Assembly (NCBI GenBank): GCA_000004985.1 | Contig: GG738901.1 | Strand: one strand, 5' to 3' | Length of the DNA stretch: 64,000 bases | DNA from: Naegleria gruberi | Lineage: Eukaryota | In this document: positions 759 to 28,991 of the stretch, one piece after another | How the letters are laid out: each line of letters opens with the position of its first letter | Numbering within the stretch: the first letter of the stretch is position 1 | The notes under the pieces: model-generated | Database searches by the model: none | Seen by the model: the letters and a program-made list of their open reading frames with translations, nothing else | What the model was told of the DNA's origin: nothing | Made by a program: the position numbers and the translations under genes

Positions 759-880
759 TGGCTACGGCCATATCACGATGAATGCACCTCATCCAGTCCG
801 ATTTGAGAAGTTAAGCATCGTCGAGCCACATCAGTACTGAGGTTGGAGACAACTTGGGAACCTGTGGTGCTGTAGTCTTT
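759..880 (+). rRNA. 5S ribosomal RNA, copy 1
   Basis: About 120 nt, ...GGCTACGGCCATATCACGATGAATGCACCTCATCC(A)GTCCGATTTGAGAAGTTAAGCATCGTCGAGCC...GGGAACCTGTGGTGCTGTAGTCTTTT. It matches the universal 5S core (CGGCCATA...CCCGTCCGAT.TG.GAAGTTAAGC...GGGA.ACC..GGGAA.CC.GGTGCTGTAG) and ends in a T-run typical of a Pol III terminator. The ends are approximate to within about 5 nt. Confidence 0.85.
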
Positions 881-962: not shown

Positions 963-1411
963 ATGGCAATACTGGATTCTTACTAAAACAGAAACTCGTT
1001 AATAATTCAATAATGTTGAAATGAAGTTTCAATTTCGAATTATAAGAATATATGAAACCAAAATTTGCACCAAGCAATACAGCTTGCCAAATGTTCAATA
1101 AATACAATTGGTCCAACCTTTTCAATTCTTCAACAAAACCTTACTGAACCAACAAGATTCTGTCTTCGTTGCCTTCACTGTTCATACAGTCAAAGACTGT
1201 AGCGGGATTGTTGCCATATTCCTGGCAGGCTTCCCGTCCAAAATAATAATTGAAATGTTATATGGCCTTAATATTTATTTATCCAAGTGTGCAATTATAA
1301 ACTTAATCAAGGAACATATGAGGATACTAAGGAAGAATGTAACAGAAATAGTGACATGAAACTCATTTATTTCATAATGTTTCAAAAGAATTGTTTTCCC
1401 GAATTATTCCA

Positions 1412-2528
1412 TTAATTTAATTTAAACATTCCTTGAATTTCCTTGGCAGAGTAGGCTCCTTCTAAAATCTTCTTCTCCTCTTCAGTCAATTGAATTTCCA
1501 ATGCTTGAACATTGAGCTCAACATTAACAGCCTTTGTTGCACCAATTACTGGACTTACAACTCCAGGCTTGGAAAGCAACCAAGCAAGTGCAATTTGAGC
1601 TGGAGAAACGTTTCTCTTCTTGGCAATTTCTGAAACTTTTCTCAAAGTTTCCTTATCACCTTCAGTCAAATTGCCCTTAAATATGGTTTGAACAATATCA
1701 CTATTTTGTCTCTTGGAACCATTTTCAGCAGTTTCGGTTGCATTCTCCTCAGCATTGACAAAATCATGAGCGCGAGCTAACATTCCATTAGAAAGTGGTC
1801 CCCAAGGAGTGAGTGAAACTCCTTGATCAACACACAATGGATTCATTTCTCTCTCCTCTTCTCTATAGATGAGATTGTAGAGATTTTGCATGGAAATGAA
1901 TTTAGTCAATCCCTTCTTCTCAGCATAATGTTGAGCTTTGGCAAATTGCCAAGCAAACATAGTAGAGGCACCAATGTATCTGACCTTGCCAGATTTAACC
2001 AAATCATGGAGAGCTTCCATGGTTTCTTCAATTGGTGTTTGTTCATCCCAACGATGGACAATGTACAAATCAATGTCTGTTTCAATTATTCATTTCAAAT
2101 CACAAGAAGAAATTCAGAAAAAACTTACAATCAAGACCCAATCTTTGCAATGAATCATCAACTGCATGCATAATGTGCTTTCTGGAAAGACCCATGGTAT
2201 TTGGTTTGCCTTGATTACCAACCATAATGAGCTTTTGTTCACCAGAATGATCCAATGGTCCACAAACTTTGGTTGCAACCACAATTTCCTCTCTTGGAAT
2301 GTTGAATTCCTTAATGAACTTGCCCAAAATTCTCTCACTTTCACCATTAGAATACATATCAGCAGTATCAAAGAAATTAATGCCCAAATCCCATGCCTTC
2401 TTCAAAATTCTTAATGATTCCTCTTCTTCCAAAACCCAAGGAATCCACTTGGAAGATCCAAAGCTCATGCAACCCAAACAAAGTTGAGAAACCTTCAAAC
2501 CACTTTCACCCAAATTGACGTATTTCAT
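1412..2528 (-). CDS. Aldo-keto reductase (aryl-alcohol dehydrogenase / Kv-beta-like), 2 exons
   Basis: Exon 1 (2528..2131) has MKYVNLGESGLKVSQLCLGCMSFG...FFDTADMYSNGESERILG...LGLD. A GTAAGT donor follows. The intron spans about 2077-2130. Exon 2 (2076..1412) has YIDLYIVHRWDEQTP...KVRYIGAS..., so the spliced junction LGLDYIDLYIVH is the classic AKR motif. Confidence 0.85.
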
Positions 2529-2892
2529 ATTGTATTGACTTGCTATTGAGAACTGTTAGTTGTGCAGATAGAATTAAATTCAAAAACTAGTTGTGAATTT
2601 GTTTTTTTGTGTTTGGAATGAGAGTTTGGTTTCAAAGCCAAAATTTAAACAGAAAATTTATACTTTTAATTCTGCGCGCATGATTCTGGTTGATTTGTGC
2701 TTATATTTGAACGAGCAGAATTATGATCATTATTGAAAGAAGTGGAACTACAAACACGATTCAAAAGATCCTAATAATCACGAATCTTGAGCTTGGAAAG
2801 ATCATCCATCCAAATGATATTTACACCATGTTGACTTTTTGATGCTGATACCATTACATTTGAAAGTAGTTCACTTTCCAGTTCAAAAAAAA

Positions 2893-4194
2893 ATGAAACC
2901 ACTACTCTTGTTAATTTTATTTTTTACAATATTTTCCACAACAGGCGCAGCAAACTTTGTGATAACTTCCCCACCTTCCTCTCGTCAAGTGTTGAAATGG
3001 CCATTTGCTGCCTGGTCAATTTGGAATTTACCTATAGGAAATAATGCAAGTTATGAATTTGGAAATATTTACTTGCCCAACACTGCAACCATAGAGGCAG
3101 ATCCTGATATTATTGTATTAAATTCATCAAATCCGTTAACACCAATCTATTATTCATCAGCAGCTTGGACTGGGGCTTCACGTTGTCAGGCATCAAGTTC
3201 AACAATTATCACAAAAGTTCCCTTCCCAAGTGATTTTATAGTTGCATCAGATGGAAGTAATTATTCTGGTGCTTTTTTAATGCCAGATAATGTGACAATC
3301 GTACAGACTCAACCAATTTGTCATTGTACTAATAGCACACAAACTTCAAATGTCACAACACTTACAAAAACTATCAGTGTCAGTATTTATGGAGATGGCG
3401 CTTATGGATCCCATGGAGGTTCTGGATTATCATCCATTGGTGGTACACTTAGATTGGGAGAATTAATTCCAGACTCCAATGGAACTGTTCATCCAGTACG
3501 TCATGCTTTGAAAGGTAATCTTTGGGCTGTTTACAATTACTACAGAAATGGAAGTGCTGTTTCGAGCTGTTTCAGGTGGCCAGCAACTGGTTGTGATGGA
3601 TATTTTGCTGATGGTAAATCAGATCAATATGGAGGTACTAATCCATATGTTCGTCCTGGTTCATTGCTCGCTCTTAACACCAGTATTAATATTAACAATT
3701 TGGGATTAAAAACAATTCCAGGATTGGCCATAGCTTGGACATTACAAAATTATGGAATGTATTTGGCAGATGATAGTTATTGGAATGCAGCTGCTTTAGA
3801 AACAGAGATATCTCCAGAGGGAAATTATGTAACACAATTTAAAAAAGCATGGAATATGGATTTTACTTCAAGTACTAATGCTTGGGCAGTTGACGTTCGT
3901 TCCTTATTTAGAATGTTATCAGTTGTTAATAGCTGGAATAAGAATATGTGGTTGAATGTATCATCTTCCAATGGTACATTGGGCGCTGGTGGAGGATTTC
4001 CATTACAGAGCTGGGCACCACCATTTGCAAATGATTCTAATATTGCTACACCTGTTAGTAGCAGTTTCATCCATACGAGCTCTAATTCTCCAAAGAATTC
4101 AACCCTTGCAAACAATCAAAGAAGTATTAATGCATGTAATTTAACAACAATAATATTGGCTATAGTTTTAATTATTTTGTGCATTCAATGGTAA
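2893..4194 (+). CDS. Secreted/cell-surface S/T-rich protein, unknown function
   Basis: Starts at MKPLLLLILFFTIFSTTGAANF, a signal peptide. The body is rich in N-glycosylation sequons. The C-terminus is hydrophobic (TTIILAIVLIILCIQW), which could be a GPI signal or a TM segment. I recognise no catalytic family. Confidence 0.55.
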   Translation: MKPLLLLILFFTIFSTTGAANFVITSPPSSRQVLKWPFAAWSIWNLPIGNNASYEFGNIYLPNTATIEADPDIIVLNSSNPLTPIYYSSAAWTGASRCQASSSTIITKVPFPSDFIVASDGSNYSGAFLMPDNVTIVQTQPICHCTNSTQTSNVTTLTKTISVSIYGDGAYGSHGGSGLSSIGGTLRLGELIPDSNGTVHPVRHALKGNLWAVYNYYRNGSAVSSCFRWPATGCDGYFADGKSDQYGGTNPYVRPGSLLALNTSININNLGLKTIPGLAIAWTLQNYGMYLADDSYWNAAALETEISPEGNYVTQFKKAWNMDFTSSTNAWAVDVRSLFRMLSVVNSWNKNMWLNVSSSNGTLGAGGGFPLQSWAPPFANDSNIATPVSSSFIHTSSNSPKNSTLANNQRSINACNLTTIILAIVLIILCIQW

Positions 4195-4327
4195 CTAAAC
4201 AATAAATTGAATGAGCAATGGTTGTTTTGAACAATGTTTTTAGGCGACCTAACTACTAATCTTTCACAGTAGATTAAGATTGCAGAACGATTTATATGAT
4301 TTATATTACGAAACTTACTTACATGGA

Positions 4328-4449
4328 TGGCTACGGCCATATCACGATGAATGCACCTCATCCCGTCCGATTTGAGAAGTTAAGCATCGTCGAGCCACAT
4401 CAGTACTGAGGTTGGAGACAACTTGGGAACCTGTGGTGCTGTAGTCTTT
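4328..4449 (+). rRNA. 5S ribosomal RNA, copy 2
   Basis: Near-identical to copy 1 (I see one substitution, CCCGTCC here against CCAGTCC in copy 1). Same orientation, followed by CTTTTCTTTTT. The flanks are unrelated, so each 5S is a discrete unit. Confidence 0.85.
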
Positions 4450-4671
4450 TCTTTTTGATCCTTTTCATTGTTTTTTATAAATTGTGAATTAGTATGAATT
4501 AACTTCCAATTTATTCACCACCAATTAGCATTTCTGTGGCACAGATATTTCATACGATAATTACACGCCATAGGTGTTCTAAATCGTGACTATGCCTTTG
4601 TGTCCATATTTCATTTCCGATTTATCAAAACCACAAGCAAAATTCATGGAAATTCTTTTATTCTCTATTGT

Positions 4672-4920
4672 TTATGGCAAACCTGGCCAATTATCAACAT
4701 ATTGAATTTTAAAATCTGGCCAATTATCAACAATTTGAATCTTATAATCAGGCCAATTATCAACAATTTGCCATTTTCCAACACTATCAGGCCAATTATT
4801 GACCTTTTGAACCTTGAGATCTGGCCAATTATCAACAATTTGGACTTTGTAATCTGGCCAATTATCTACGAATTGAATCTTACCATAAATTTTGGCAATT
4901 TGATCTTTGGAAAGTGTCAT
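4672..4920 (-). CDS. Small tandem-repeat protein, 7 copies of an 11-aa [KQ]IQIVDNWPD[YF]K unit
   Basis: 82-aa ORF with a 33-nt tandem period. The W-P-D codons are held constant while third positions vary (ccagat against cctgat), which is consistent with selection on the protein rather than a recently expanded minisatellite. Confidence 0.4.
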   Translation of the reverse strand: MTLSKDQIAKIYGKIQFVDNWPDYKVQIVDNWPDLKVQKVNNWPDSVGKWQIVDNWPDYKIQIVDNWPDFKIQYVDNWPGLP

Positions 4921-5196
4921 TTCTTGTTTTTTTATTCTGTTGTTTTGATCAACACGGATATCACACCATGTGATGATTTTAAAGGAAAATTAGAAGTGTT
5001 ACATAGCTGTTCGATTTCACAATAGTTCCTGGTTGATCTTCGAGGATTTTCTGACAATTGTAAAACGTATTTGCTTGTTGGAATTGAAGTTACATATTAC
5101 ATTGTAAAATTGGTTCAATCTGATTGTTCATGAATTGCTGCACTGTACAGAATCTAACACCAAAAGTTTTCATTTCAGGGCTGCAAAATAATTTCC

Positions 5197-8100
5197 TTGA
5201 TCATCTGTAAAAAAATGAACGAATTGCTAACTACTACCAACAACCACAAGAACATTCTCACCTATTTTTATGCACCCATCAATGATTGTACAAATATTAA
5301 TTCATCATCATCAGCATCGGAACCATTTTCCAACAAACATGAAAAACATGAGGATGATGATCTTAATTTAATTGCTAATAAATCGACAAAAGTAGTACGA
5401 GATATTTTCCTATTTGAAGAATGGAGATTAATTGCAAGTTTTTTGACGAGGAAAAATTGTTTTGGAGGCTTGGCAAGTGTAAACAAAACTTCAAGATTGG
5501 CAGTTTTAAGTGTACATTTTATTAGAAATAGTGCAGTGATTAAATCATTTGCACTTCGTTGGATTTGGGCACAAACTATTGATAGTTATTCCGATAAATT
5601 ACCAAATAATAGATTTATTGAAATATTAAAACCACTTCAGGAGGAATATTATGATTTGCACCAATTTATACAAGATCCAAATCAAGAAAAGAGTGAAAAT
5701 TACTTTCCAATACCAAATTATTATTCACGTAATCTTGTAAAGGCAGCATGCAGTGTTGGAAATAACGAAATTATTTTACAATTAATTGAAAAATCATTTT
5801 TATTTGATTTGAGCACAGTAACACCATCAAAGTATTATGATTTGGCATTCTTGAATGGACATTATGATACAGCTGTTGCTTTTGCTAAAACTTTACTTTT
5901 AAGAAATGGAGAATTGGATATTTCCAAATGTATTCCTCAAATAATTTCTCCATTCATTGCACCAATTGAATTTGAAAATCAATATCAAATAGTCTATCAA
6001 TTATTTAACAGATCTCAAACACATTATCAATTGGGAATTAGTAGAATAATTTATGAATTATTACATTCACAACTTTTACAAACATGCCATGAGGAAGCTT
6101 CTAAAATTGGTTGGACTAATTTATTAGATATTGCTCTTTTTAATTTGCATTTCCCACAACTATTAATGCGAAATGATATTGAGTCAGTTCAATTTATTGT
6201 TGGACGTTTATATCAAAATAGAAAAGAAAACAATACTCTTCCATTATTTTCAAATGATTTGGAAAGAATCCTCATACAAATACAATCACTGGATCAAGTT
6301 GATTTTCTTGTATGGTTCTTTGAATATATAGGAAGTTTGGGAGAGTTGACATTATTATCGGATTTAATATTTAACAATTTGAATACTATTTTAACTATTA
6401 ATACTAAATTTTTAGATATTTATTTGAATCAATTTCATGGAAGACATGTTGAAAATGATGAAAAAAGACTCTATGAATATATGGATGGTTTGGATACCAA
6501 CTATCTTAATTTGATATCTCTTTTGGGAATTACTAAAATACCATACGAGAGGATTGCAAAACATTTAAACTCATGTGCACAGTACTATTTGGTTAATTAT
6601 GGTAATGTAATTGTTCAATATTATGAACCAGAAATTGCAACAATCATCTTTAATAACATTCAACTCTTCCTTGATGATACAAAGATTCATCCAAAGAAAC
6701 GTTCGCTCTGTTTAACACCAAGAGTACAAACAGATCTTGTTAATTTATTTCTCAAACAGGAGATTGTAGATTGGAAACTAATTGTAGAATTTATTGAAAA
6801 GAATCCATTCATGTCCAATTTTATGGAAATTATAATTTCAAATGCCTATGATTCGTTTACAAGAACAATATTGGATAGAATTTACTCAACTTCAGACTCT
6901 GAGAATTATTCATCCAGAAGAAGATTTATATTCAAATCCTTTACTAGATATATTGAGAAGGATGTTTATGACTTTTGTGCCTTGTTAATGTTTGCATGCA
7001 CAGTTGAAAAGAGTTTTATGAAAGCTTTGATAGAAAGGAATGAATTTTTAATATCAAAGATTCATGCCTCATTTGAACCATTTCAAAATGTTAGTCAAAT
7101 GATTGAAAGATGGAACGATGGTTCATTTGAATTAATTTCACATGATTTGCCTGTTTTGGACTGTCTTTGTAATAGTTCGTTGAAGGTATTTGTAAATGCT
7201 ATTGGTTCTCTATGGCCACTTTCTAATAATTTCCTCAGTTTGACATTTAAAATTCTCGATGAGTCATATGAACCTATCGTAAGAAATAACATTAATGATA
7301 TTAGAAACATTATCCGACATTTCATTACATCAAGTCATGATATTGATATTATAACATCATACTTCAAAACGACAATTCATCAGGAGGAAATTTTAAATGT
7401 TCTAATGGGATTACCACTATTTACGAAAGATAATTTGTTAAATATTTCAACATCGGTTTTAGCAAGAACAAAATTAACACTTTCAAGTTTAGATACGATT
7501 GTTAACATTATTCACGATCATTTTGATGATGTTCTAGAACAAAAATTCAAAGATTACATTACCATTCCACAAGATAATTTATCACAACTCATTTCTATCA
7601 AATACCATCCAAAATCAATATCATTACTTGAAAGAATTTCATATAGACATTTATTTGAACCTTCATATTTGTCATTCTTTGAACAAATTGAAAGTGTATG
7701 TGGAAGAGGAAGTATGGTTTCATCTGATAGTGCACAAGCCTATTGGAATGCATCCAGTGACCCTTATCTCTTGTTAAATGATAGAGATACTATTATGAAT
7801 CTACTTTCAAAATATGAAACTATTCCTAAAACAAGCAAGTGGAGATCAATTCTTACAGGTCTAGTTAATCATGGATTTATTGATGAACTATTGGAAAGAT
7901 TAGCGGAAAAAGAACATCGTAAACCAATTCTTTTTGAAAATTCTCCTCTTTTCACTTTAACAAGTTCATTTGGAAATATTTCTACTTCTTCTGAATTTCT
8001 ACAAGAAAATAGAAAGAAGGAACAACAATCAGAAAGAGAAAAACAACTCTCCTATGTTCAAGCTCCTCCTCTATTTAATTTTACTTTTGATTTTGGAAAT

Positions 8101-8274
8101 TCCAATAATAATAATAATAATAATGGAAACTCATTTATTTTCCTTTCTAAGAATGAATCAAACAGTGGAAATAGTAGTAGTGATGGTTTGGAATTACACT
8201 CATCTAAAGCACCCCCAACTAATTATTCACACACAACATTACCATTTAATCAATACCTACAGTTCAAGCAATAA
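5197..8274 (+). CDS. Large hypothetical protein (1025 aa), possible N-terminal F-box-like segment, N-rich C-terminus
   Basis: Long uninterrupted ORF. The segment RDIFLFEEWRLIASFLTRKNCFGGLASVNKTSRLAVLS has F-box-like hydrophobic spacing, but the match is weak. The tail is poly-N. Confidence 0.55.
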   Translation: MIICKKMNELLTTTNNHKNILTYFYAPINDCTNINSSSSASEPFSNKHEKHEDDDLNLIANKSTKVVRDIFLFEEWRLIASFLTRKNCFGGLASVNKTSRLAVLSVHFIRNSAVIKSFALRWIWAQTIDSYSDKLPNNRFIEILKPLQEEYYDLHQFIQDPNQEKSENYFPIPNYYSRNLVKAACSVGNNEIILQLIEKSFLFDLSTVTPSKYYDLAFLNGHYDTAVAFAKTLLLRNGELDISKCIPQIISPFIAPIEFENQYQIVYQLFNRSQTHYQLGISRIIYELLHSQLLQTCHEEASKIGWTNLLDIALFNLHFPQLLMRNDIESVQFIVGRLYQNRKENNTLPLFSNDLERILIQIQSLDQVDFLVWFFEYIGSLGELTLLSDLIFNNLNTILTINTKFLDIYLNQFHGRHVENDEKRLYEYMDGLDTNYLNLISLLGITKIPYERIAKHLNSCAQYYLVNYGNVIVQYYEPEIATIIFNNIQLFLDDTKIHPKKRSLCLTPRVQTDLVNLFLKQEIVDWKLIVEFIEKNPFMSNFMEIIISNAYDSFTRTILDRIYSTSDSENYSSRRRFIFKSFTRYIEKDVYDFCALLMFACTVEKSFMKALIERNEFLISKIHASFEPFQNVSQMIERWNDGSFELISHDLPVLDCLCNSSLKVFVNAIGSLWPLSNNFLSLTFKILDESYEPIVRNNINDIRNIIRHFITSSHDIDIITSYFKTTIHQEEILNVLMGLPLFTKDNLLNISTSVLARTKLTLSSLDTIVNIIHDHFDDVLEQKFKDYITIPQDNLSQLISIKYHPKSISLLERISYRHLFEPSYLSFFEQIESVCGRGSMVSSDSAQAYWNASSDPYLLLNDRDTIMNLLSKYETIPKTSKWRSILTGLVNHGFIDELLERLAEKEHRKPILFENSPLFTLTSSFGNISTSSEFLQENRKKEQQSEREKQLSYVQAPPLFNFTFDFGNSNNNNNNNGNSFIFLSKNESNSGNSSSDGLELHSSKAPPTNYSHTTLPFNQYLQFKQ
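8104..8125. repeat. (AAT)n microsatellite inside a coding region (poly-Asn)
   Basis: AATAATAATAATAATAATAAT encodes NNNNNNN in the 5197-8274 ORF. Similar (CAA)n and (AAT)n runs recur in the 13884-16187 and 37147-38611 genes. Confidence 0.8.
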
Positions 8275-13883: not shown

Positions 13884-16187
13884 TTATTGATTAGCAAAGA
13901 ATTTGTAGTACTTTTGATTTGGATTCTTTGATTTAAATTTGTACTCATCATAAATGTTGTGTCTCAAAACATATTGAGGCATGTAGTTCTTCTTACTAAA
14001 CAAAGCTTGTTGTTGTTGAAGAGATAATTCACCAGTATTGGTTGCATCGATGAATGTGAAATTGCCAGAGGATTGTTCCATATTTTGCATTTGCATTGGT
14101 TGTTGCATATTTTGCATTGTGTCATTAGTTTGAGGTGACATGGAGGCAATTGGAGAAGATTTCTTTCTAGCTTGTTTTTCAAATGCAACTTGAATATTAC
14201 CATCACTTTGACTTCTCTTCTTTCTATTTTCAACATTTGTAATCTTGGCAATGTTTGGTGAAACAACAGTTGCGTTTTGTTTAACATTTCCTTCATCATC
14301 ACAAGAGTAGGTATGGAATTGAAGTGAATTAGTTCTCTTATTTGAGGCTGCCATTTGCTTTCCAATGAGTACATTAGCAGATCCAGATCTAGATCTTGAA
14401 TTACTCCTAGTAGATGATGCAGTTGACATTGCATTAGAAATATAGGAAGTTGTAGGACTTCCATATGCAGTATTGTTAAAAGTATTTGGAGAGGATGAAT
14501 TTGACATGGATGGTGAAGGAATCATCATTCCCATAACAGGAGATGATGGTTCTGACATGGTATACAAATTTCCAACTCCATTTCCTCTATTAAATTGTTG
14601 TTGTTGTTGTTGTTGGATAACAATACCATTATTATTCATCATTTGATTATTAGTTGTCGCGCCATTAAACATGATTTGATTATTATTAGGGAAATTAACC
14701 ATAGTAGTGTTGGTATTTGGTGAATTATTACCACTGCCACTACCACCATTATTGTTAAACATGATATTTCCACCACCCATCAAATTACTGTTATTTGAAC
14801 TACTTCTGACATGAATATGTTTTTGTAAATTAATTGAACCTGATTGAGTAGAATCAATACTCATAACAGAAGAGGTAGAATTTGAACGCTTTTGTCTACC
14901 TGCCATTCTAATCAAGTTATTTTCAACCTTCTTAACTGGGAATTGATTATTGACAACCATTGAAGGTGATTGTGGAGTACCAACACTCATACTCATATTT
15001 TGGAATGGATTGATAAAAGTAGTTGGTGAGTTATTACCACTATTTGGAGTTGAAATCATATTATTATTATTAGTAGAAATAGCCATATTATGTTGTTGGG
15101 TATTCACCATCATGTTTTGTTGTTGCAATTGTTGCTGAATGGATAATTGATTCATAGATTGCATCATCATTAACATATCAACAGAATTATTAGAAGCAGT
15201 ATTATTAGCAGCATTATTAAAACCAACCAATTGTTGTGGTTGATGATAATTAGTTGCCTGTTGATGATTTACCATCATATTAGCAGCTGCATTATTAAAA
15301 CCATTATTATTATTAATATTAATATTATTCATATTATTATTCTGTTGTTGTTGTTGATCAAAGCCTTGAATTGGTAACATGACCAATTGGCCATTATTAT
15401 TATTACCATTGTTATTCGTACCAACTAGATGATTCTCTTGCTTGACTACAAAGTTTGTTTGCAAATTTCCAATCACTTGATGTCCGAGTGGACCAAACGA
15501 AATAACGCCATTATTATTATTATTATTAATAATATTGCTGTGTTGTGCGCCTACTACAGTGTTGTTTGCGTTATTGTTGTTGATAATATTATTGCGTTGT
15601 TGTTGTTGTGCTTGTTGATGATGATGAACGTTGGAAACTTGCAAACCGAGAGAGGAATCATAATCACTCAAGGCTTGATCAATTTCCTTATAGTAGAAAT
15701 CATTAGGGTTTTCATGTTGTTGTTGTTGTTGGTGGTGATGAGAAGCAATATTGAAATTATTGGCAGAGCCTTCATCGAGCAAGGAAGTAGTACTACTACC
15801 TTGTTGTGAATCGAATGGATGAGCAGAATTTCCCACCTGTTGTTGTTGTTGTTGACTTGCTGTGGAGGTTGAATAGAGTGAATGTTGTTGTGGTTGATTG
15901 TGTGAAGTATTGCTATAATTATTATTAACATGAGTTGGTTGGTCAAAGGAACCGAAAGTGTTGGAATCCAAATAGGAAACACCATTACCAGTGGCAGATT
16001 GTGAAAATTGAGAGTTTGTTGGATTATTAATGAAAGAATTCATGAGGTCATGTGTGGAAGTTTGTGAGAGGAGTAATTCAAAGTCATCAGTGTCAATAAA
16101 GTCATCTTCAATATTGTTGTTATCATTGAGAGAGGAAACAACCGACGAAGAAACACCAAGAGAACGATAAGGATCTTCGTTAGACAT
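13884..16187 (-). CDS. N/Q/S-rich low-complexity protein (767 aa), possibly a nuclear regulator
   Basis: Long ORF with poly-Q, poly-N and poly-H-Q runs and an S-rich tail. I recognise no folded domain. The codon periodicity is maintained throughout. Confidence 0.5.
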   Translation of the reverse strand: MSNEDPYRSLGVSSSVVSSLNDNNNIEDDFIDTDDFELLLSQTSTHDLMNSFINNPTNSQFSQSATGNGVSYLDSNTFGSFDQPTHVNNNYSNTSHNQPQQHSLYSTSTASQQQQQQVGNSAHPFDSQQGSSTTSLLDEGSANNFNIASHHHQQQQQHENPNDFYYKEIDQALSDYDSSLGLQVSNVHHHQQAQQQQRNNIINNNNANNTVVGAQHSNIINNNNNNGVISFGPLGHQVIGNLQTNFVVKQENHLVGTNNNGNNNNGQLVMLPIQGFDQQQQQNNNMNNININNNNGFNNAAANMMVNHQQATNYHQPQQLVGFNNAANNTASNNSVDMLMMMQSMNQLSIQQQLQQQNMMVNTQQHNMAISTNNNNMISTPNSGNNSPTTFINPFQNMSMSVGTPQSPSMVVNNQFPVKKVENNLIRMAGRQKRSNSTSSVMSIDSTQSGSINLQKHIHVRSSSNNSNLMGGGNIMFNNNGGSGSGNNSPNTNTTMVNFPNNNQIMFNGATTNNQMMNNNGIVIQQQQQQQFNRGNGVGNLYTMSEPSSPVMGMMIPSPSMSNSSSPNTFNNTAYGSPTTSYISNAMSTASSTRSNSRSRSGSANVLIGKQMAASNKRTNSLQFHTYSCDDEGNVKQNATVVSPNIAKITNVENRKKRSQSDGNIQVAFEKQARKKSSPIASMSPQTNDTMQNMQQPMQMQNMEQSSGNFTFIDATNTGELSLQQQQALFSKKNYMPQYVLRHNIYDEYKFKSKNPNQKYYKFFANQ

Positions 16188-16703
16188 TTTATTTTGAATA
16201 TTTTTTAACTGACAGCTGTCTGAATTGAGTCTTGACTTTACAGGAAATTACCTTAGGATATCATCGGCAGTTTAGTTGAGATTACGCAGGTTGCTAAAAC
16301 TACTCTGTTATCCCAATACCCTCACAAGATTTCAAGGTATAATAATAATCTTTAAAAAACCATTCATTGTTAAAATTTAATTATCAACTTGGTCAACTAT
16401 AATTCTTGTAAACAAAAACGAATCGTTGGAAGAATCCAAGTGATCGGGGCCAAAACTCGTCGAAGAGGCAGCGCCAATATAACCCTTTCGATTTGGATAT
16501 GCCTGTTGCTTTTCACAGATGGCACAAAAGAACTAGAATTGAAATTGTAAACGCGCTCGGTTGGTCTATTAGACATTCGCATAAATTTTCATTGAAACTC
16601 TTTATCCTTGAGAATCAGGACTACCTAACAGAGTAACCATTCAACCAATAAGATTGATTCAATGGAGAACACTAAGGTGTTATTCAACACAGTTGTTTGA
16701 TTT

Positions 16704-17570
16704 CTACTGTAGATTCAAGCCCGTAGTTGATTGTTGGTTTAGTGCTGGATAATAAAGTAAATGTCTAAAGGTTAGGGAAATTCTTCTTGGAAACCTCTTT
16801 TTTCTTTTAATTCCATGTTTCCAGTCATATCTTCCTTCCTTAGACATAATCAATAAAGAGTTTGGTTCCAATGTTAATTTAAATTTCATATCTGGATTGT
16901 TTGCACTCTCAAAATCCATTTGGCATTCGTTCACCAATGAAAGACAAACTATTTCCTTTCCAAATACCTTTACATTATCTACATGTTTGGCAATTGACTG
17001 CTCATAATATTCCTGAACTAAACATTGATTAATTCTATCATCTATGACTTGTTCTAGAGATGGTGCTTCCCATTCAAAAGAGGAAGGATCATTTGAATTT
17101 TCATAATACTCATCCAACCCTTTAATTTCCTCATCTTTCATAAAGTTAATTCCGAAATCCCTTTCAACAGGCTTTGAAACAAACGACAATTCATCAAGCA
17201 AGAGTGGTGATTTTCTCATTGGTTGCAAGCCTGGATGAAATAATTTAGTAAAATAGTAGTGAATTCCATAGCATTGAATTCTTCGGGAAAGTAGTGAATC
17301 ATACCACGAATGATTATCGAGAGTACTTAATAATTTACTTCCCTCATCATGGGAAAGATAATTCGGAACATAAATTAATCCTTCAATTTCTTCACCAGTA
17401 ATTGGATTCTTCACATAACCTGATGAATTACCAGAGGCAGTTGGTACATGTTGATCCGACACATCACTAGTTGAATAACAAGCTTTTTGTACTATTGATA
17501 ATAGAGAAGGAAGGCTTTGAAAATTATTTCTCTTGTTGTGCATGAGAGCGGGAAGGAATTTTTTGAGCAT
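16704..17570 (-). CDS. AlkB-family (ALKBH7-like) 2OG-Fe(II) oxygenase, probably mitochondrial
   Basis: The N-terminus is basic and amphipathic, like a mitochondrial presequence. I see SRRIQCYG, a characteristic AlkB-homolog motif. The HxD is KHVDNVKVFG, the distal His is DWKHGI and the Arg is RISLTFRH. Confidence 0.6.
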   Translation of the reverse strand: MLKKFLPALMHNKRNNFQSLPSLLSIVQKACYSTSDVSDQHVPTASGNSSGYVKNPITGEEIEGLIYVPNYLSHDEGSKLLSTLDNHSWYDSLLSRRIQCYGIHYYFTKLFHPGLQPMRKSPLLLDELSFVSKPVERDFGINFMKDEEIKGLDEYYENSNDPSSFEWEAPSLEQVIDDRINQCLVQEYYEQSIAKHVDNVKVFGKEIVCLSLVNECQMDFESANNPDMKFKLTLEPNSLLIMSKEGRYDWKHGIKRKKRFPRRISLTFRHLLYYPALNQQSTTGLNLQ

Positions 17571-17786
17571 TCTTTTGAAATTATTTCTGAATATTACATT
17601 TGTTTATTAATTTAATATTTTCAATTAAATAGCAGGGTAAAATTTTGAAATATTTGTTTTAATGAGTCCTTCTCTTGGTCGTTCATTAATATCTTCCTTG
17701 TTTATTCATGGAGTTGATTACTGTATTCCGATTTGCCAACTTTTAGTGGAATTGTAATGTTAGCAATTTAAAATAAACCAAAAAAA

Positions 17787-20135
17787 ATGGCGCGTACACG
17801 AGGTAGCATTAGAAATAATGGCTATCCAGATGTTACTAGAATGGCTCCTCGTAAATTATATTTAGAAGAAAAACCACCAATAAAAGAATATTTGAGAAGG
17901 TTTGAAAAAGCACTCAGTAGTAATCCTGATGAATTTGATATGACTGTGTATGAGGCTTGTCCCGATATTACCAAACTTTGGATTATTCAAGATCAGAGAA
18001 AGCCAAAAGTAGTTGATCAAGAAATCTCGTGGGAGGGTTCATTTGAATTGTTGGAACATTTACCAAATGAATTAAAATTGGAAATTATTGATTTTATTCC
18101 AACCCGTAGTTTGCATCAAATGCATAGAAGAAGACTTGAAAAATTGGGAGAAGATATTTTAATGGAGTCTGTGAATGAGAAATGTTTATATTATTTGGAT
18201 AAACCTTTTGTGACCTATCACAAGATGAGAATAATTAACAAGGAGTGTGCCAGAAGAATGAATTTAAAGATTTTAGCAACTGACAGCTTTGATCTGTCAT
18301 CTTTTCACGATGAGATTTCAGTTGATAGAAAAAGGTCATTGTACTATTTTTTAGAGTTCATACGAGTACAATCTTTATTGGAACGAAAAGAAATTTCCTT
18401 AGATAATCCGTTTATATATGAAGGAGTTGAAAATATCAAAAAGTTGGACAAGAAAATATTCATTTCCGAACCAGAATTATTTCCTAAAAACACGGATATT
18501 CCTTCTACAGATCAAAATGAGCCAATAAGCTCGGAAACTTTTCAAACAATCACTACTGAACTTGAAGATGAAAAATTGGAAGACTTGCTTTCTGAAAAAC
18601 TATCCATCTACGTAACTCCTACAAGAAGAAGACGTAAACCACAATTTGTAGAAAAAAGGGACACAAAAGCTATTGAAAAGGCTCAATTTTATCAAGAACT
18701 AGTTCCAGCAGATAACATTCCGACAAAAATTACTTTAGACCATCTGAATGCTAATTTTCTTGAGGAGGTATCACAATATTTAGGAGAAAATAATACTATC
18801 AAGCACATAGTATTTAGTGGAATGGATTCGGCATTTCTTACTTGGATATTGAAATCACTCAAAGGGTTGAAAACAGTTGACATGGTATCTTGTGTTGTAC
18901 CGCCTTACTTTGTGACCGATCAAGGCAATTTGCACAATATTGAAAGGATATCTTTTTTCAATTGTGCAAATGTTTTTATAGACGAGTTTGAAAATCTTGC
19001 AAACTCTCTTTCAAGATCTTGTATAATAGAAAGCTTTCTTAATGATGAGGAGGAGCATTGTGACTTTGATGGCCAGTTCAAATACTTTGTCAATGATGAA
19101 CTCCAAACTGAATCAATTGGTGATGATAATGAGAAGCTCGTGATTCATTCCCACTCAAACGACACTTTCATCTTGAACGAGAGAATGAAGACTTTTTTTT
19201 CGTATGATTATTTCAGATGCACAGGTGCAAATCATCCTTTAAATTTCTTACAATTCCAAGATGCCCTCCCAATCAAACAAAAGAAAAATATTTCTGAATT
19301 CATGTTTAAGGAGAAAAGGATTCCAATAGAATTCTCCATAGCAATGATAGCAAATAATGAGCCAAATCTCATTTACTGTTATATTATTTATTTGGCTAAT
19401 ACCTATCAGAATGGTAGATTGCAAACGCCTACCGTTGATGGAACAATTTCTAGCTTAAAATATGGATGGATACCAACAAAAATGATGCAAGAACTCACTC
19501 TCAACACCCTAACATCAGATTACCTACCTTTAGCACTGAACTATATGAAAAACAAACTATCTGTAAGAATATTTGCCCAATTTTTGAGAGATTTATTGCT
19601 TGAGAGGATTTTTGGACACAACACTAACGATAATGAATTATTTGCCATTTATACAGTTATTAAGAAGGTTTTACCCACAGAAGAGAAACATGTATTATAT
19701 GAACATGTTAAATGCATTTCAAACAAAAATGCTGAAAAGTATTTGCCTTCTGTTACCGTTCCTATCCTGGGTCTAATTTTCAACAATTTCCAACTTGGTG
19801 TTGCATTGTTGAATGAAATGAGTGACTATGAGTTGCTTTTTCAAAATGAGTTGGGAGACACAATTTTACATTTTCCATTGGCTCATGATAATTTACTTAT
19901 CAATATGATTTTAGAAAAACAACCCAAATTAGCTAAAATTGTAAATAATTACAATAGCACAATTCTTCATAACTTTACAGCAGATAATTACTATCGTATT
20001 CCAGTAATTTACAACCTGATTCACAAATTTGATGCAGATCCAAATCATAGAGACATATTTGGCAACACACCATTTGATGAAGGCAATTTCAATTTTGATT
20101 ACGAGACAGGTATTATATCTCATAGATTCAACTAA
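17787..20135 (+). CDS. F-box-like / ankyrin-repeat protein (782 aa)
   Basis: The segment LEHLPNELKLEIIDFIPTRSLHQMHRRRL is F-box-like. The C-terminus has ankyrin-type repeats (GDTILHFPLAHDNLLINMILEK...ADPNHRDIFGNTPFD). Confidence 0.55.
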   Translation: MARTRGSIRNNGYPDVTRMAPRKLYLEEKPPIKEYLRRFEKALSSNPDEFDMTVYEACPDITKLWIIQDQRKPKVVDQEISWEGSFELLEHLPNELKLEIIDFIPTRSLHQMHRRRLEKLGEDILMESVNEKCLYYLDKPFVTYHKMRIINKECARRMNLKILATDSFDLSSFHDEISVDRKRSLYYFLEFIRVQSLLERKEISLDNPFIYEGVENIKKLDKKIFISEPELFPKNTDIPSTDQNEPISSETFQTITTELEDEKLEDLLSEKLSIYVTPTRRRRKPQFVEKRDTKAIEKAQFYQELVPADNIPTKITLDHLNANFLEEVSQYLGENNTIKHIVFSGMDSAFLTWILKSLKGLKTVDMVSCVVPPYFVTDQGNLHNIERISFFNCANVFIDEFENLANSLSRSCIIESFLNDEEEHCDFDGQFKYFVNDELQTESIGDDNEKLVIHSHSNDTFILNERMKTFFSYDYFRCTGANHPLNFLQFQDALPIKQKKNISEFMFKEKRIPIEFSIAMIANNEPNLIYCYIIYLANTYQNGRLQTPTVDGTISSLKYGWIPTKMMQELTLNTLTSDYLPLALNYMKNKLSVRIFAQFLRDLLLERIFGHNTNDNELFAIYTVIKKVLPTEEKHVLYEHVKCISNKNAEKYLPSVTVPILGLIFNNFQLGVALLNEMSDYELLFQNELGDTILHFPLAHDNLLINMILEKQPKLAKIVNNYNSTILHNFTADNYYRIPVIYNLIHKFDADPNHRDIFGNTPFDEGNFNFDYETGIISHRFN

Positions 20136-21490
20136 AATAGCATTACTTTTGAAATATCTTCATCATTAATAAAATAGCTCATCTTCAGTCTAGGAACTGA
20201 ATTAGCTTGAATTGCATGCTCCACTTTTTCAATACATGCAGCTACTGTTTTGGAGGCACATCTAATAATTATCTTCTCCACTTGATTTGGATAGGCAGTA
20301 TGAATCTTTGCGTAAATATCAGGATCTTGCTCTGCACTGTCTCCTAAAAAAAGAAACTTTCTTTTTGGATAAGATCTAATAATTTGGTGAATACTTTCAG
20401 GTTTGGATATCTTGCTTGATTTTAGCATGGTAAAAAATGTGTAATTATCTAGGTGAGAAACACGTAAGTGGAAACTTCCAATTGGAAATCTATTATCTAA
20501 AATAAACGATTCCAATTTGTTGTATAATACGAATGGGCTACTGCTAACATAGTGGAAATTTGTTGATGGATAGGTTGTTTTGAGTTTTACAAATGTTTCG
20601 TTAATGTAAGGTACAGCCCTGAATGGGTTGAAGGTTCTTTTCATCATTTCAGATAAACCTGATGTTACATTAGTGATTTTAATACTATCATCGATATCAC
20701 TAATAACAGAGTAAAGAGAGCTTTCTTCCAAAAATGCATCACAGTTAAAGAGTATTTGTCCATTCTTGATATGATCCAATATTTGTACCGTATAATTCAT
20801 CCATTCCACCTTGTTATCACAAAATAGTTCCTTATATCTATTTTTTTCCATTGCAATTTCATGATAAAAATATCCATACTCATCACTTTTGAGAGTAAAA
20901 TTTCTATTCAATAGAGGAATGAAAACATTAATTTTCATTTGAGATGGTGCAGCAAATCTCAAAAAGAACAATTCCAATTCCTTGAAAATTGAATACTCAA
21001 TATTGAATGCAAATTGCATGACATTGAATAAAAATTTCAAATACAACTTGTAGGTCAAATGCACCAAATGATGAAATTCTGAGAGGTAACTTGTCTTGGA
21101 ATCCTCCACTTTGAATCTAAATAATTGGTGATAATAAAACTCCAAATCAGTATTATAATAAATGTATCCAAATATTGGCAATTGAAAATGTGTTGAATTA
21201 GTCTTTGTAAATGTCCTAAACGTGTCAACATGCAAAGGATCATTAACCACTGAATCATTACTCAATGAGACAGATGATAATAAAACATCATCAAACCTAA
21301 CCTGGTCAATAGTCCCATCTCCATCCAAATCAATTTCTTCTCCTTTCCATTTGAATGGAACCACATAACTCGTATAGAATGAATAAACAAACAACATTCC
21401 GATCATCATCATGTAGATTAGTGTCGAATACTTGAGCGAAAATTTAATCAAAGCTCGCAAGCAGTGAAAGGTTTTCCTTGTTCGAGACAT
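20132..21490 (-). CDS. APP1-like phosphatidate phosphatase (DUF2183 family), N-terminal TM anchor
   Basis: The N-terminal hydrophobic segment is LIYMMMIGMLFVYSFY. I see a VISDIDDSIKIT motif (DxDx[T/S] HAD-like nucleophile) and FLFLGDSAEQDPDIY (second conserved APP1 motif). Confidence 0.55.
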   Translation of the reverse strand: MSRTRKTFHCLRALIKFSLKYSTLIYMMMIGMLFVYSFYTSYVVPFKWKGEEIDLDGDGTIDQVRFDDVLLSSVSLSNDSVVNDPLHVDTFRTFTKTNSTHFQLPIFGYIYYNTDLEFYYHQLFRFKVEDSKTSYLSEFHHLVHLTYKLYLKFLFNVMQFAFNIEYSIFKELELFFLRFAAPSQMKINVFIPLLNRNFTLKSDEYGYFYHEIAMEKNRYKELFCDNKVEWMNYTVQILDHIKNGQILFNCDAFLEESSLYSVISDIDDSIKITNVTSGLSEMMKRTFNPFRAVPYINETFVKLKTTYPSTNFHYVSSSPFVLYNKLESFILDNRFPIGSFHLRVSHLDNYTFFTMLKSSKISKPESIHQIIRSYPKRKFLFLGDSAEQDPDIYAKIHTAYPNQVEKIIIRCASKTVAACIEKVEHAIQANSVPRLKMSYFINDEDISKVMLF

Positions 21491-22066
21491 TTTTTCAAAG
21501 GCTTGTTTTATAATTTTCCAATATCCCTCCTCCTTTTAAAACCCCACCAACAATTGAATTATTTTCATTGTGATAGGATACATGTTCTTCTTATTGACTT
21601 GAGCGGAAAATTCTTTTTTAAATGATGAATTGAATATATATTTGTTTAATTGTGCCTCCTAGCTAGACTACTTTCGATTTGATTATTTTCCAAATGGTGG
21701 AATCATTATTGGAGGATTTCCTAATAATTTCCTCTTCCATTATGGAGCCAGTAACATTTGTTTGTTTTTTCCACTTAGCAAAAATCTTAAATTGAGTTCA
21801 ATTTTCCATAAGAAAGCAAGAACAATGAGCTTATCATGAACTCTCAATATCTGGCTTGGGAATTAAGCATGATGAGAAGGAAATGAATTGTTGTTTGATC
21901 CTTAATGAGTGATACAATAATTCCCTCCCTTCTCCCTTTTTACAACCTTCGTTGCGCATGTTCAAACCTATAACTTGCTTCCATTTTCTTGTTATTGCCA
22001 TTTTCAAATGAATTCAGAGTCTGTGTAATTCCATTCTTTTCCGTTCTATCCTCCCTTAATTAAAAT

Positions 22067-23009
22067 TTATTCTTGTTCTTCTTGTTCACTCGCTTCTTGT
22101 TCAACTTCAGATTCTTCCTCTTCATGTTGTGTTGCGTTATGTGTTGGAGCAGACGAGTTATTGTAACTTTGTGCAAAACCTTGACTTACACTAGTCTTGT
22201 TGGTTTGTTTTGAGGTATTACCTATCCTTGGTTGTTTTGGAATGCTCCACGAGGCCTCTTTGACAGGAATAAAAGTACTGACCTTTTTATCGAAAACTAC
22301 CACAAAAACAGAACCAATATTAGGATCGAAATTTTCTCCATACTGTACAGATTTTAGGTCAACATCTTTCGGGAGATGATATTCTGTTATTGAGAATGTT
22401 TCTAACGAATGTTGTGTGTTCTCTGTTAGTCCAGCTAGGTCGAAAAAAGAAGAAAAACAGTATTCCAAGTTTTCCGTTGTAAACAATGCACGAACTGTCA
22501 CAGTAATTGTGAACGTTCTTTCAGTGGTGGAAACACCTTTAAATTCGAACAGTAGGTGATCGTTTGGATAGCGGAACACAAAGAAACGTTGTTTGTGAGT
22601 CTCAAATCTAAACGGCTTCAAATAGGATACCTCAGATTGCTCAACAACTTTGGACGCTTTGATTGGACTTTTAAATACTGGAGGTTCTTTATCTTCCTCA
22701 AAGTCTGACTCCTCTTCAAAGCGTTCGTCATCTTGTGTACCTTCTGCAGCTTTGTCCACGTTTTTTTGTTCATCCCTTAATGCCGGAACTATAACATCGT
22801 ACCAATTATGTTTTACCTGGGAAAAAGTAAATCCGTGTTCTTTAGCAAAATTGGTAAGGTTTGTTGTTTTTGTTTCGTTCTGATGTTTGTCCATAAAGTT
22901 CTTCAACATATCACGAAACTTGACAGTGAATCTTTTGGATTTCTTCTCCTCGGCATCTTCATCCACACGTTTTCTCTTATTGTTTGAGCGTTGTTTCTTT
23001 GGTGCCATT
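22067..23009 (-). CDS. Basic/acidic nuclear protein, unknown function
   Basis: Starts MAPKKQRSNNKRKRVDEDAEEKKSKRF, which is NLS-like. Acidic stretches follow in the middle and at the C-terminus (EEEESEVEQEASEQEEQE). No recognised domain. Confidence 0.45.
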
Positions 23010-23422
23010 TTTTCATTTGACCGGAACAGTTCAGTAAACATGAACAAAAACATGTGCTACCCACTACGTAGATTCAAATGGTTCATGTTAATTGTTATTC
23101 TGTGAGAGGTTTGAATTTCTTAATATTGCCAATCAATTCATATAATAACCTTGAGAGTGAAGCAACCTTCTTAGTAAATTCAATTAATTTTGAAGGTTTC
23201 TTCATAATCGGATATGTTGATGAAAATTAACTTAAAAAATCTTTTTTTAATCAAATTTTCAAAAAAAAAGCCCAACAACCACCACTGTTGCCCTTTGTGT
23301 TTTAAAAACATTGGAAGATAAATAGATTATTTGGAACACTTGGAATTTAATATAGTTTTTTTAAGGAGTTGTTGTTATCATTGGGTTTTTTGGAAATAAT
23401 TAATATATAAATCATCATCAAA

Positions 23423-26400
23423 ATGTCTTTCTTTGGATTTGGTAGAAGTAGTAGTAGCAGCAATGTTACATCTCCTTCTTCTTCTTCGGGACAATCTGGT
23501 GATTCATCCCAATTATCTTCTCCAACTTATGACACTGGTAGAAATATTGATGGTATGTAAATTGATGATCATCAATTCAAATAATATTTAAAATTAATTT
23601 AGATATTGTGAAAGGATTATTGATTGCTTTGGATGATAGTGATATTAACGTACACAAGAATATTCACCAATCTCTTCTAAAAATTGGTAATGAATGCGAA
23701 TTGCTCTTACTGAGTAAATCACTCTACTTTTTAAATAATACTTGCCCGAAATCAAACAAGAAACACAGAGTATTTGTTATGAATATTCTTACTGAACTTT
23801 TAAATAAGAAACCATCTAGCAATGATTATGCTGTTGTTCGTACTTCTCTCAGTTCTCAAATTGATACAACACAACAATTATTTAAACTTCCGGATGATCT
23901 TTCTCGTGCATTGATTAATATGGCTGTATTAGAAATGGTACAAGAAAAATCTGTGAATTCCGATTGGCAAGCCAGTGCTTGTAATTTATTAATTGCATTA
24001 TCTAGATTCTCACCAGATATGGTTTCTGGACAATTATTGGAAAGATTCCCTGTTAGTAGTACAAATCCACCACATTATTTTGTTATCAAAGCTTTGAGTG
24101 ACATTGCTTTTTATTATCCATTATTATTTATTAGTAATTTGAAGGAAGTACTTTCAAGAACTTTACCTTTATTGGCTATGATTAAACACGATAACTTGAG
24201 ATGGGTTTTTTGTGCAGCCCTTGGTAGATGGTCGGAAGCAGCTATTTATTGTTTGGAATTATCTGAAAAATCAACTCAACATTCAAATCCTATTGATAAG
24301 ACAACAATTTCACAATATCACTCTTCAGTATTAACTGCTATGAAACATATCTTGTTGGAATGGTTGAACTTGAGAGAACCTAAAATCAGACTTGCTGCTG
24401 CTCAATCAATTGGTTACATGTGTCATATTATTGAAACAGATCAACTCAATCAATTACTTCCAAAATTAATGCCAAACTATATTCAATCACTCAGAAAAGA
24501 AATCAAGGATGACCCATTGCCAGTTACAGTTGGTCTTCAATATATTGTCAAGGTTGTTGTAAGAGATTGTCCAACCTCTTTGAATGAACATTTACAAGCA
24601 ACTTTGGGAACTTTGTACTCTGTATTGCTCACAACAATTGCCAGAAAGGGTTCTTATAAGAATGGTCAAAGAAATATTGCTGAAACTTTGAAGACATTCC
24701 ACTATTTGACTAGAGGATTTACTGACCAAGTAGTTTCATTCCTCCAAGCTCAATTGGAACAACCAACTGGTACTACTATTACACGTGTTAGTGCTCTCAA
24801 AATTTTAAGATATTTAGTTGTAAATAATGATGAAGATTTGATTTCTTACAGAGATGTAATTGTCAGTGGTTTGATGAAAATTCTCAAAGACCCAAGTGGT
24901 AATATGATTGTTATTGCTGATGACTCAGAAGTTCACTACGAATTCAGTGTTCTCATCCATACCATGGCACAAAAATCTGGATATATGATTTCACAAGGTG
25001 GTACTGAATTGGTTCATGTCATTTTGAGAGGTTGCTCTATTTCAGAAAGAAAAATTGCCGATGACCTTAAAGCCAAAATACCACCTTCCTTGTTGAATGG
25101 AAATGATCAAGAAAAAGTTGCTCAATCAATGATTGCCAGATATGAAAAGGAAGATGCTAGTGTTTTCGTAGATACCACCATAATTTCTGCCCAACAAACT
25201 GCTGAAGATGAGGAATTAAGCAGTGAAGATTCCGAAGGTAGCAAAACAACCAATCCACAAGACTCATTGGATTCATCAACAAATGTTCCACTTGTTGTAA
25301 CTTGGTACCAAGTTAGAGAAGGATGTGATCGTGTTTTATTGAGTTTCACAACTAAACTTGGTGAAGAAATGGATAAGGTTTTGTGGCCATTCTTACTTGA
25401 ATCTTTTGTTATTCCAAGTTATGATATCGCCTTCCCAGTTTTGTGTAGAGCTATTGCCGATATCAGCAAACGTAAGAAGAACGATGATGATTTCATTATT
25501 GATTTCGATGCTCAAGTCAACATTCCAAAGCAAAACTTTATCTTTGCTCGTTTATTGTTGAAGCTTACCTCTCCTTTTGGAAGAAATCAACCTGCTGTTA
25601 ACATTCTTCGTGCTCTCTATTGTCTTTCACCAAATATTCACCCAGATGTTGTTCAATTGTGGGGTAAGAAATTACCAAATTTGAAGAAGTATATTGATAC
25701 ATGTGACTCACTTACTTCCTTCAACCAAGACGAATGGGATAATCAATTATTGAACCTTGTTCGTGACAGTATTGACAGCGTTCAAGATGATAGATGGGCT
25801 GTTGCTCTTGGTGAAGCTTTGCTTGATCATGCTGACATTTTCTATAAGAACAATAGATTGTTGAAAAAGGCCTTGTTATCAATTGTTGGTCTCATTATTC
25901 AAAAGAGTCAACTTAAGCAATTTATTCACTCTGCTGTTGAAAGATGCTTCAAGATTACTGATCACACCAGTGATGAAGAAAGATTGGGATGCGCTCGTGG
26001 TCTAGGTCAAGCTGCTGTTAATCATTGTGATAGTGTTTTAACACAATTGCAAAATGTTATGAAGGCTCCAGAAAAGAAAACTGGTTTCTTCGCCAGAAAT
26101 ACTGGTAAGGAAGTTGGTCCAGAAGAAAGAGCTACTGCTATTCTTTCATATGGTTATGTATCTATGCTCACTCCTTTGAATCTCATTACATCTCGTGTCG
26201 AAGTTCACGTTGTTAAAAACATGACTCCAATTTTGAAACCTCAACCACCTCAACCAATTCCATATGAATTGAAAGAAAATGGATTGAAGGCTATTGATTT
26301 GATTGGTAAATCAGTCCATCCAAGTAGATTGAGTGATTTTATTTTGAAATCCAGAGATGAACTTGTTAGACTTGTTATTCAAATTATGACTCCATCTGCT

Positions 26401-28974: not shown

Positions 28975-28991
28975 AATAAAAAAGTAAATAT

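Follow-up and report, generated by a model that had tools for sequence, protein, structure and literature searches.

Close to a 5S rRNA gene on contig GG738901.1 of Naegleria gruberi (assembly GCA_000004985.1) lies a small open reading frame (ORF) built of near-identical 11-residue units, and the locus raises the question of whether such an array is a gene at all and, if it is, what protein it encodes and how it reached this genome. We analysed it within a stretch of 64,000 nucleotides of the contig (the window). The ORF list gave the ORF exactly at 4672-4920 on the minus strand, running from an ATG (4918-4920) to a TAA (4672-4674) and encoding 82 aa (MTLSKDQIAKIYGKIQFVDNWPDYKVQIVDNWPDLKVQKVNNWPDSVGKWQIVDNWPDYKIQIVDNWPDFKIQYVDNWPGLP). 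The surroundings are those described in the initial annotation: a 5S rRNA gene (4329-4447, plus strand) on one side at a distance of 225 bp, a 1025-aa host ORF (5197-8274, plus strand) on the other at 277 bp, and, facing it on the other DNA strand, a 141-aa ORF that overlaps it (4600-5025, plus strand). That annotation also described the product as lacking a signal peptide, and its N-terminus (MTLSKDQIAK...) indeed contains no hydrophobic stretch. An upstream exon encoding a signal peptide was considered and rejected, since an in-frame stop precedes the ATG by about 70 nt, the divergent neighbour lies no more than 277 bp from the ATG, and a related copy on a metagenome contig (L014, described below) starts likewise (MT...). 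No paralogue of the ORF was found elsewhere in the 64-kb window. An exact-sequence look-up in a gene collection found neither the product of this ORF nor the neighbouring APP1 protein; the gene may be absent from current annotation, although the source genome as a whole is apparently missing from that collection.

The array is a tandem repeat of imperfect 33-nt units, as had been proposed (TRF: period 33, 6.0 copies, 74% matches, score 186, 4679-4882). Seven units had been counted, but anchoring on the N-W-P motif yielded six, at residues 14-24, 25-35, 36-46, 49-59, 60-70 and 71-81, with start-to-start spacings of 33, 33, 39, 33 and 33 nt according to the repeat finder. All are encoded on the minus strand, behind an N-terminal lead of residues 1-13 (MTLSKDQIAKIYG; 4882-4920) that was delimited by alignment, by comparison with Pseudomonas genes and by secondary structure. 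Unit 1 (KIQFVDNWPDY, 4849-4881) comprises the predicted strand 13-17 and a DNWPD turn, and unit 2 (KVQIVDNWPDL, 4816-4848) the strand 24-28 and its turn; unit 3 (KVQKVNNWPDS) is followed by a two-residue insertion (V47-G48), and together they occupy 4777-4815 and account for the 39-nt spacing. Units 4 (KWQIVDNWPDY, 4744-4776) and 5 (KIQIVDNWPDF, 4711-4743) were placed by N-W-P anchoring and secondary structure, and unit 6 with the C-terminus (residues 71-82, KIQYVDNWPGLP; 4675-4710) by alignment, its x-P-G followed by one to three residues being typical of the family identified below. The motif V-D-N-W-P-D, which had been called invariant in all units, is present in four of the six, with V-N-N-W-P-D in unit 3 and V-D-N-W-P-G in unit 6; the positions invariant across all six are only K at position 1, Q at position 3, V at position 5 and N-W-P. 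The invariant Lys, Val and Pro are each written with two or three codons (AAG/AAA, GTA/GTT/GTC, CCA/CCT). One of the two examples of synonymous change given earlier is correct (ccagat against cctgat), whereas the other (gataat against aataat) changes Asp to Asn and is nonsynonymous. The general observation behind these examples holds, because the differences pooled over unit pairs are concentrated at synonymous sites (pS = 0.51 vs pN = 0.18).

Although no named family had been recognised for the product, its relatives have one: PF19647 (Septknot, or 7(1) septoil knot domain), with a match to phrog_6462 and a solved member (PDB 8IWA). PF19647 is a known family without known function, for which a structure was solved in 2023; to our knowledge it has so far been discussed only through bacterial proteins, and we know of no protein knot more complex than the 7_1 knot of its solved member. 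A search of 5.8 billion protein clusters returned 58 relatives (best E = 4.7e-31; 67-72% identity over 90-100% of the ORF), of which 57 carry a precomputed PF19647 annotation and the weakest (P0058) carries none; one source names a relative '7(1) septoil knot domain-containing protein'. HMMER against 1.84 billion cluster representatives gave 1152 relatives at E <= 1e-3, 621 of them at E <= 1e-10. In PHROGs v4, phrog_6462 matched at E = 1.7e-24, with ORF residues 9-82 on profile positions 30-103 of 103, and in a sequence search of the PDB the sole relative was Q9PR55 ('Uncharacterized protein UU089.1'; 8IWA and four other entries; E = 1.4e-7), aligned from query residues 15-75 to chain residues 27-88. 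A Pfam-A scan did not report PF19647 for the ORF, nor for P0001, P0072 and P0135, which are all PF19647 proteins by precomputed annotation, and this negative result is uninformative because known members are missed by the same scan. NCBIfam gave no match for the ORF and likewise missed known PF19647 proteins, and PADLOC gave no defence-system match for the ORF.

The loops of the family carry a conserved tetrapeptide x-aromatic-P-D (PMC10840475), SFPD in the majority of members, which in the Naegleria protein reads NWPD, with Trp in place of Phe, in all five inter-strand loops and NWPG at the C-terminus. Such Trp turns are rare: across 202 relatives the residue before P-[DGN] is Phe 904 times and Trp 51 times, and at least five W-P-[DGN] motifs occur in only 5 of the 202, despite the Trp-rich query. 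The ORF ends with ...NWPGLP, and 174 of the 202 relatives end in the same manner, with xPG and at most six further residues, the domain standing at the extreme C-terminus. A subfamily of 78/202 has a Cys before the first strand and a second Cys in a D-x-C-G-x-W connection, a pair that probably forms a disulfide; the window ORF lacks both, and its third connection, the longer one, reads DSVGKW (unit 3 and V47-G48), as is conserved in the Cys-free subfamily. Two observations concern the family at large. In a Bacteroidales metagenome-assembled genome (L012), a lipoprotein-like gene (4066-4839, plus strand) lies upstream of a Septknot gene (4860-5249), and its C-terminus is a divergent Septknot-like domain with turns of the type SG-[GE]-D instead of SFPD and with 38% identity (E = 7e-12) to the second of the two domains of P0064; judged by these sequences, an aromatic-free sister subfamily seems to exist, as do tandem or paired arrangements. 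On the contigs carrying P0082 (L037-L039), the called Septknot genes, translated with table 11, do not give the recorded product, which points to an alternative code of the kind used by mollicutes and certain candidate phyla.

The fold had been expected to be a beta-solenoid or repeat scaffold; the prediction is instead a six-stranded mini beta-barrel, a fold whose backbone, in the solved relative, is wound about the axis of the barrel into a 7_1 torus knot. The AlphaFold2 model (59-sequence alignment; mean pLDDT 92.8, pTM 0.76) has strands at residues 13-17, 24-28, 35-40, 49-52, 59-63 and 70-74 and a short helix at residues 5-8 in the N-terminal lead. Foldseek against the PDB retrieved no entries but those of Q9PR55 (E = 5e-6 to 5e-5, probability 1.00, TM 0.65/0.68), the best match to any other protein having E > 3, and a sequential superposition of the model on 8IWA gave 2.2 A. 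The knotted core of Q9PR55 comprises residues 27-83 (PMC9278004), which align with residues 15-71 of the window protein, and from the superposition together with the alignment over this core we infer that the Naegleria protein would also form a 7_1 knot. In the model each 11-residue unit supplies one five-residue strand (K-[IVW]-Q-x-V) and one tight D/N-N-W-P-D turn, and the six strands would close into a monomeric mini beta-barrel of pseudo-fivefold symmetry. The periodic conservation that had first drawn attention to the locus would be explained by the constraints on strand register and turns in such a knotted barrel.

The conclusion that the minus-strand ORF encodes a constrained protein, already put forward in the initial annotation, is borne out by the 58 homologues and by a dN/dS of about 0.11 in comparison with the L014 copy. 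This comparison covers 50 codons only, over which the two copies share 78% of amino acids and 81% of nucleotides (dN 0.123, dS 1.08), with 8, 3 and 18 differences at codon positions 1, 2 and 3 (chi-square against an even split 12.1, 2 df, p about 0.002). The array might still be thought a non-coding 33-nt minisatellite that is open in two frames by accident, as its period is divisible by three and both strands are open; however, it has end-to-end matches to hundreds of bacterial proteins (E down to 1e-31) and to a solved structure, the differences among its units are mainly synonymous, and the structural model is confident and fold-specific. The homologues and the match to the solved protein Q9PR55 refute the minisatellite reading, to which we give practically no credence. 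As little is to be said for the idea that the plus-strand 141-aa ORF is the real gene and the minus-strand ORF its shadow. The plus-strand ORF is the longer of the two, but it has no family match (none in Pfam) and evolves in its frame with a pN/pS of 0.97 between the window and L014, against 0.20 in the minus-strand sense frame; moreover, the homologues, the signal peptides of the bacterial proteins and the solved structure all fit the minus-strand reading. The 141-aa ORF is refuted as a gene by the minus-strand homologues, the Q9PR55 match and these ratios, and it had rightly been dismissed as an antisense artefact; the Pseudomonas and Bacteroidales homologues, too, have an open antisense frame. 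The TGGCCA (Trp-Pro) core is palindromic and its codon boundaries fall at the same places on both strands, so that the antisense strand likewise encodes W-P and remains open.

With the coding strand settled, the origin of this Septknot gene can be considered. Its nearest named relatives are proteins of 99-102 aa from the Pseudomonas fluorescens group (P. monachiensis, P. sputi, P. lactis, P. poae, P. veronii and others), with 67-74% identity by tblastn over residues 8-81 and, for the P. monachiensis protein (L007), 75% over the 73-residue mature domain; among sequences of this type from metagenomes, identity rises to 76-77% (L021). The set of closest relatives is biased, because the loci scans detect only sequences that have exact words of 8 residues in common with the query. 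At the nucleotide level the identity between the window gene and the bacterial genes is only 67-69%. The lead (residues 1-13) aligns with the first mature residues (..TVDVSKIYG) of the bacterial proteins, just past their signal peptides; in one example a leader MSSMLKTFVLSLLAFGTGTVLA is followed by DTTVDVSKIYGK, and the window ORF begins at the mature start. A hydrophobic N-terminus is present in 156 of 202 relatives, and a short N-terminus like that of the window ORF in only 11. Neighbourhoods offered no functional clue in Pseudomonas (where transporter genes and a gene for a 140-aa secreted protein lie nearby), in Bacteroidales or on one contig of small genes.

No copy was detected by tblastn with two queries in 50,697 GenBank phage records, so that the phage link of phrog_6462 is weak and may stem from prophages. 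A scan of viral contigs likewise found nothing; tblastn against plasmids gave only three distant matches, in Leptospira and Burkholderia. In a neighbour-joining tree (BLOSUM62; 51 domains, 73 residues) the window protein grouped with the L014 copy (P0078) in 25 of 100 bootstraps and stood in a loose group with other Trp-type sequences; the tree is too poorly resolved to single out a donor. The cluster, loci and metagenome searches showed the family to be overwhelmingly bacterial and patchy in eukaryotes, and the window gene was probably acquired from bacteria.

Since amoebae are grown on bacteria or live with them and the nearest named relatives belong to Pseudomonas and Bacteroidales, a bacterial contamination (e.g., by prey Pseudomonas) or a chimeric assembly has to be weighed. 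The window, however, carries eukaryotic genes encoding HECT-WD40, calpain, F-box/2OG oxygenase, Maestro-HEAT and APP1 proteins, the APP1 ORF with 61% identity to its counterpart in N. fowleri and 46% to that in Willaertia magna. From 13884 to 29681 it is collinear with N. fowleri contig VFQX01000010.1 (L036) over five consecutive genes with 58-78% identity, namely a small GTPase-like ORF, Maestro-HEAT (78%), APP1 and two unnamed ORFs (58-59%). This gene order marks the window as nuclear DNA of a heterolobosean, a Naegleria species other than N. fowleri, and a GC content of 33% would fit N. gruberi. The N. fowleri locus offers no match for a 782-aa ORF at 17787-20135 and has a TPR gene in its place. 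In the 21 kb of the N. fowleri contig that were examined no Septknot copy was found, and this segment ends before the syntenic position. The adjacent 5S gene (4329-4447, plus strand; 105 bits) is one of two dispersed 5S genes of eukaryotic type, the second (760-878, plus strand) lying 3569 bp away; the duplicated segments (727-911 and 4296-4480; 185 nt, 85% identity) are so short that only the 5S gene and its immediate flanks are repeated, and the 64 kb contain no other rRNA gene and no tRNA gene. A 451-aa ORF (2839-4194, plus strand) without a Pfam match separates the two 5S genes; hydrophobic both at its N-terminus and in its C-terminal tail, and rich in N-x-S/T sites, it looks from its sequence like a secreted or GPI-anchored protein.

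Composition gives the same answer as position. The Septknot ORF has a GC content of 0.33, a GC3 of 0.24 and a codon-adaptation index against the window ORFs of 0.85, compared with a GC3 of 0.275 +/- 0.038 and an index of 0.705 +/- 0.04 (maximum 0.76) for 16 host ORFs, whereas a Pseudomonas homologue has a GC3 of 0.73 and an index of 0.34 and a Bacteroidales homologue values of 0.42 and 0.42. An index above those of all 16 host ORFs may hint at high expression, with the reservation that the ORF is short and repetitive. With a eukaryote-type 5S gene and a host ORF within 225 and 277 bp, 64 kb of eukaryotic genes around it, host codons, low nucleotide identity to the bacterial genes, no signal peptide and no composition break at the locus, the ORF is a resident gene of host composition and no contamination; we rate the chance of contamination or chimerism as very slight.

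Residence does not by itself make a gene functional, and a transferred bacterial fragment that is open by chance and neither expressed nor functional would be an alternative. In favour of such a relic, the signal peptide of most relatives is missing and the only other copy in a eukaryotic context that bears on this point, the one on L014, looks irregular at its 3' end. This 4.2-kb metagenome contig (GC 37%) carries P0078, with 71% identity to the window protein, together with fragments of Strumpellin (a WASH-complex subunit) and GCV_H, on account of which we regard it as eukaryotic. The gene (1183-1779, plus strand) begins with 'MT' right before the domain, has an A-rich leader and lacks a signal peptide, as the window gene does, but encodes five WP units instead of six and has no stop right after the domain; past ...FVDHWPQG it continues for about 130 codons, which include a hydrophobic stretch (VVLMFFFLFAVIDVGLFF) and lie antisense to a converging GCV_H exon. 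The copy could represent a collapsed assembly repeat, a decaying copy or a real five-unit variant with a tail (perhaps with a 5_1 knot), and it is a candidate orthologue of the window gene that may have suffered decay or mis-assembly. The Naegleria ORF itself, however, contains the mature domain in full, first strand and family-typical WPG end included, its codon usage is fully host-like and exceeds that of the 16 host ORFs compared, and its dN/dS against L014 is low. Host-like codons require long residence, during which neutral DNA of 33% GC would have gained stops and eroded the 70-75% identity to bacterial proteins. A dead relic is therefore unlikely, and the persistence of a selected gene is the reading that we retain.

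The gene might also be an ancient vertical eukaryotic one, or have spread between eukaryotes, and not have been acquired directly in the Naegleria lineage. The domain does occur in other eukaryotes: in C-terminal position in a Symbiodinium sp. KB8 protein of 817 aa (L035, 619-3072), in a similar product with a C-terminal Septknot domain on a dinoflagellate-like metagenome contig of 66% GC (L032, about 4650-5219), at the end of a 186-aa marine eukaryote transcript product (P0072, MERC), and on the Strumpellin-bearing L014; the L014 and Symbiodinium relatives are labelled PF19647:Septknot. P0072 starts with MGCASS, which by its sequence looks like a myristoylation/palmitoylation signal. Moreover, the neighbour-joining tree does not nest the window protein securely in any bacterial clade. 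Against vertical descent or eukaryotic spread stand the patchy eukaryotic and overwhelmingly bacterial distribution and the fact that the window protein is closer to its Pseudomonas counterparts, at about 75% identity, than to those of dinoflagellates and of the marine eukaryote (P0072, 66%), so that we hold such a history to be rather improbable.

Taking sequence comparison and structural modelling together, we consider it likely that the locus is an intact single-domain Septknot gene (PF19647 / DUF6150), acquired from bacteria long ago and kept under purifying selection. Beyond this, we lean towards the view that a Naegleria-type amoeba has domesticated a bacterial 7_1-knotted mini-protein, which lost its export signal, came to have Trp in all turns, stands under purifying selection and now resides in the cytosol. 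According to the model, the protein would fold in the amoeba cytosol as a monomeric, 7_1-knotted six-stranded barrel. By analogy with Q9PR55, its five turn Trp would radiate outward and fix the strand register in the way proposed for the Phe 'linchpins' of that protein, and strong resistance to chemical and AAA+-driven unfolding would be expected, i.e., a small, very stable cytosolic module that would withstand unfoldases and proteases. Its putative role could, very tentatively, be that of a hyperstable binding or plug-like module presenting an aromatic crown.

What is new here is the eukaryotic and presumably cytosolic setting, the fold itself having been described already. A conserved, codon-adapted and signal-less copy in Naegleria would extend the 7_1 knot to the eukaryotic cytosol, and the gene is a clean candidate for gene transfer from a bacterium to an amoeba. 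N. gruberi grows in culture and is thus a tractable organism in which to study the role of hyperstable knotted modules; if domestication is true, the protein would give access to the way in which such a knotted chain is folded and degraded by eukaryotic ribosomes, chaperones and proteasomes, and to the function of the family. For annotation in general, the case warns against writing off a short tandem-repeat ORF beside a 5S gene as a minisatellite.

In comparison with known systems, the protein of P. monachiensis (L007, 4920-5228, 102 aa) and its kin are the most similar, being collinear and gap-free with the window gene, with the same DSVGKW connection and WPG end, and belonging to the Cys-free subfamily. 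They differ in an N-terminal signal-like segment of 22-25 residues that the window gene lacks, in turns that mix Y, F and W where every window turn has Trp, and in a GC3 of 0.65-0.77 against 0.24. The same difference is seen with phrog_6462, in which about the first 29 profile positions, corresponding to the N-terminal leader (L007 matches 4-102), have no counterpart in the window ORF. The structural reference is Q9PR55 (UU089.1) of Ureaplasma urealyticum (8IWA, 8IWB, 8IWC, 8JRM and 8W68), a monomeric 7_1 knot of pseudo-fivefold symmetry with an SFPD motif in each of the five loops between its strands, whose Phe point outward in a star-like manner, and with high stability in urea and resistance to ClpXP (PMC10840475). 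The window protein shares only about 30% identity with it, has N-W-P-D turns (all Trp) instead of S-F-P-D and DSVGKW instead of SSSFCEETI in the third connection, ends, unlike Q9PR55, with a sixth motif of WPG type, and is encoded on a eukaryotic chromosome and not in a mollicute genome. P73136 of Synechocystis, a homologue of Q9PR55, has, according to AlphaFold, one winding less and a 5_1 knot (PMC9278004); it belongs to the same family as the window protein, which aligns over the full 7_1 core of Q9PR55. The case of P73136 implies that the type of knot depends on the number of windings and therefore on the number of units, and by this analogy the five-unit copy on L014 might be a 5_1 form.
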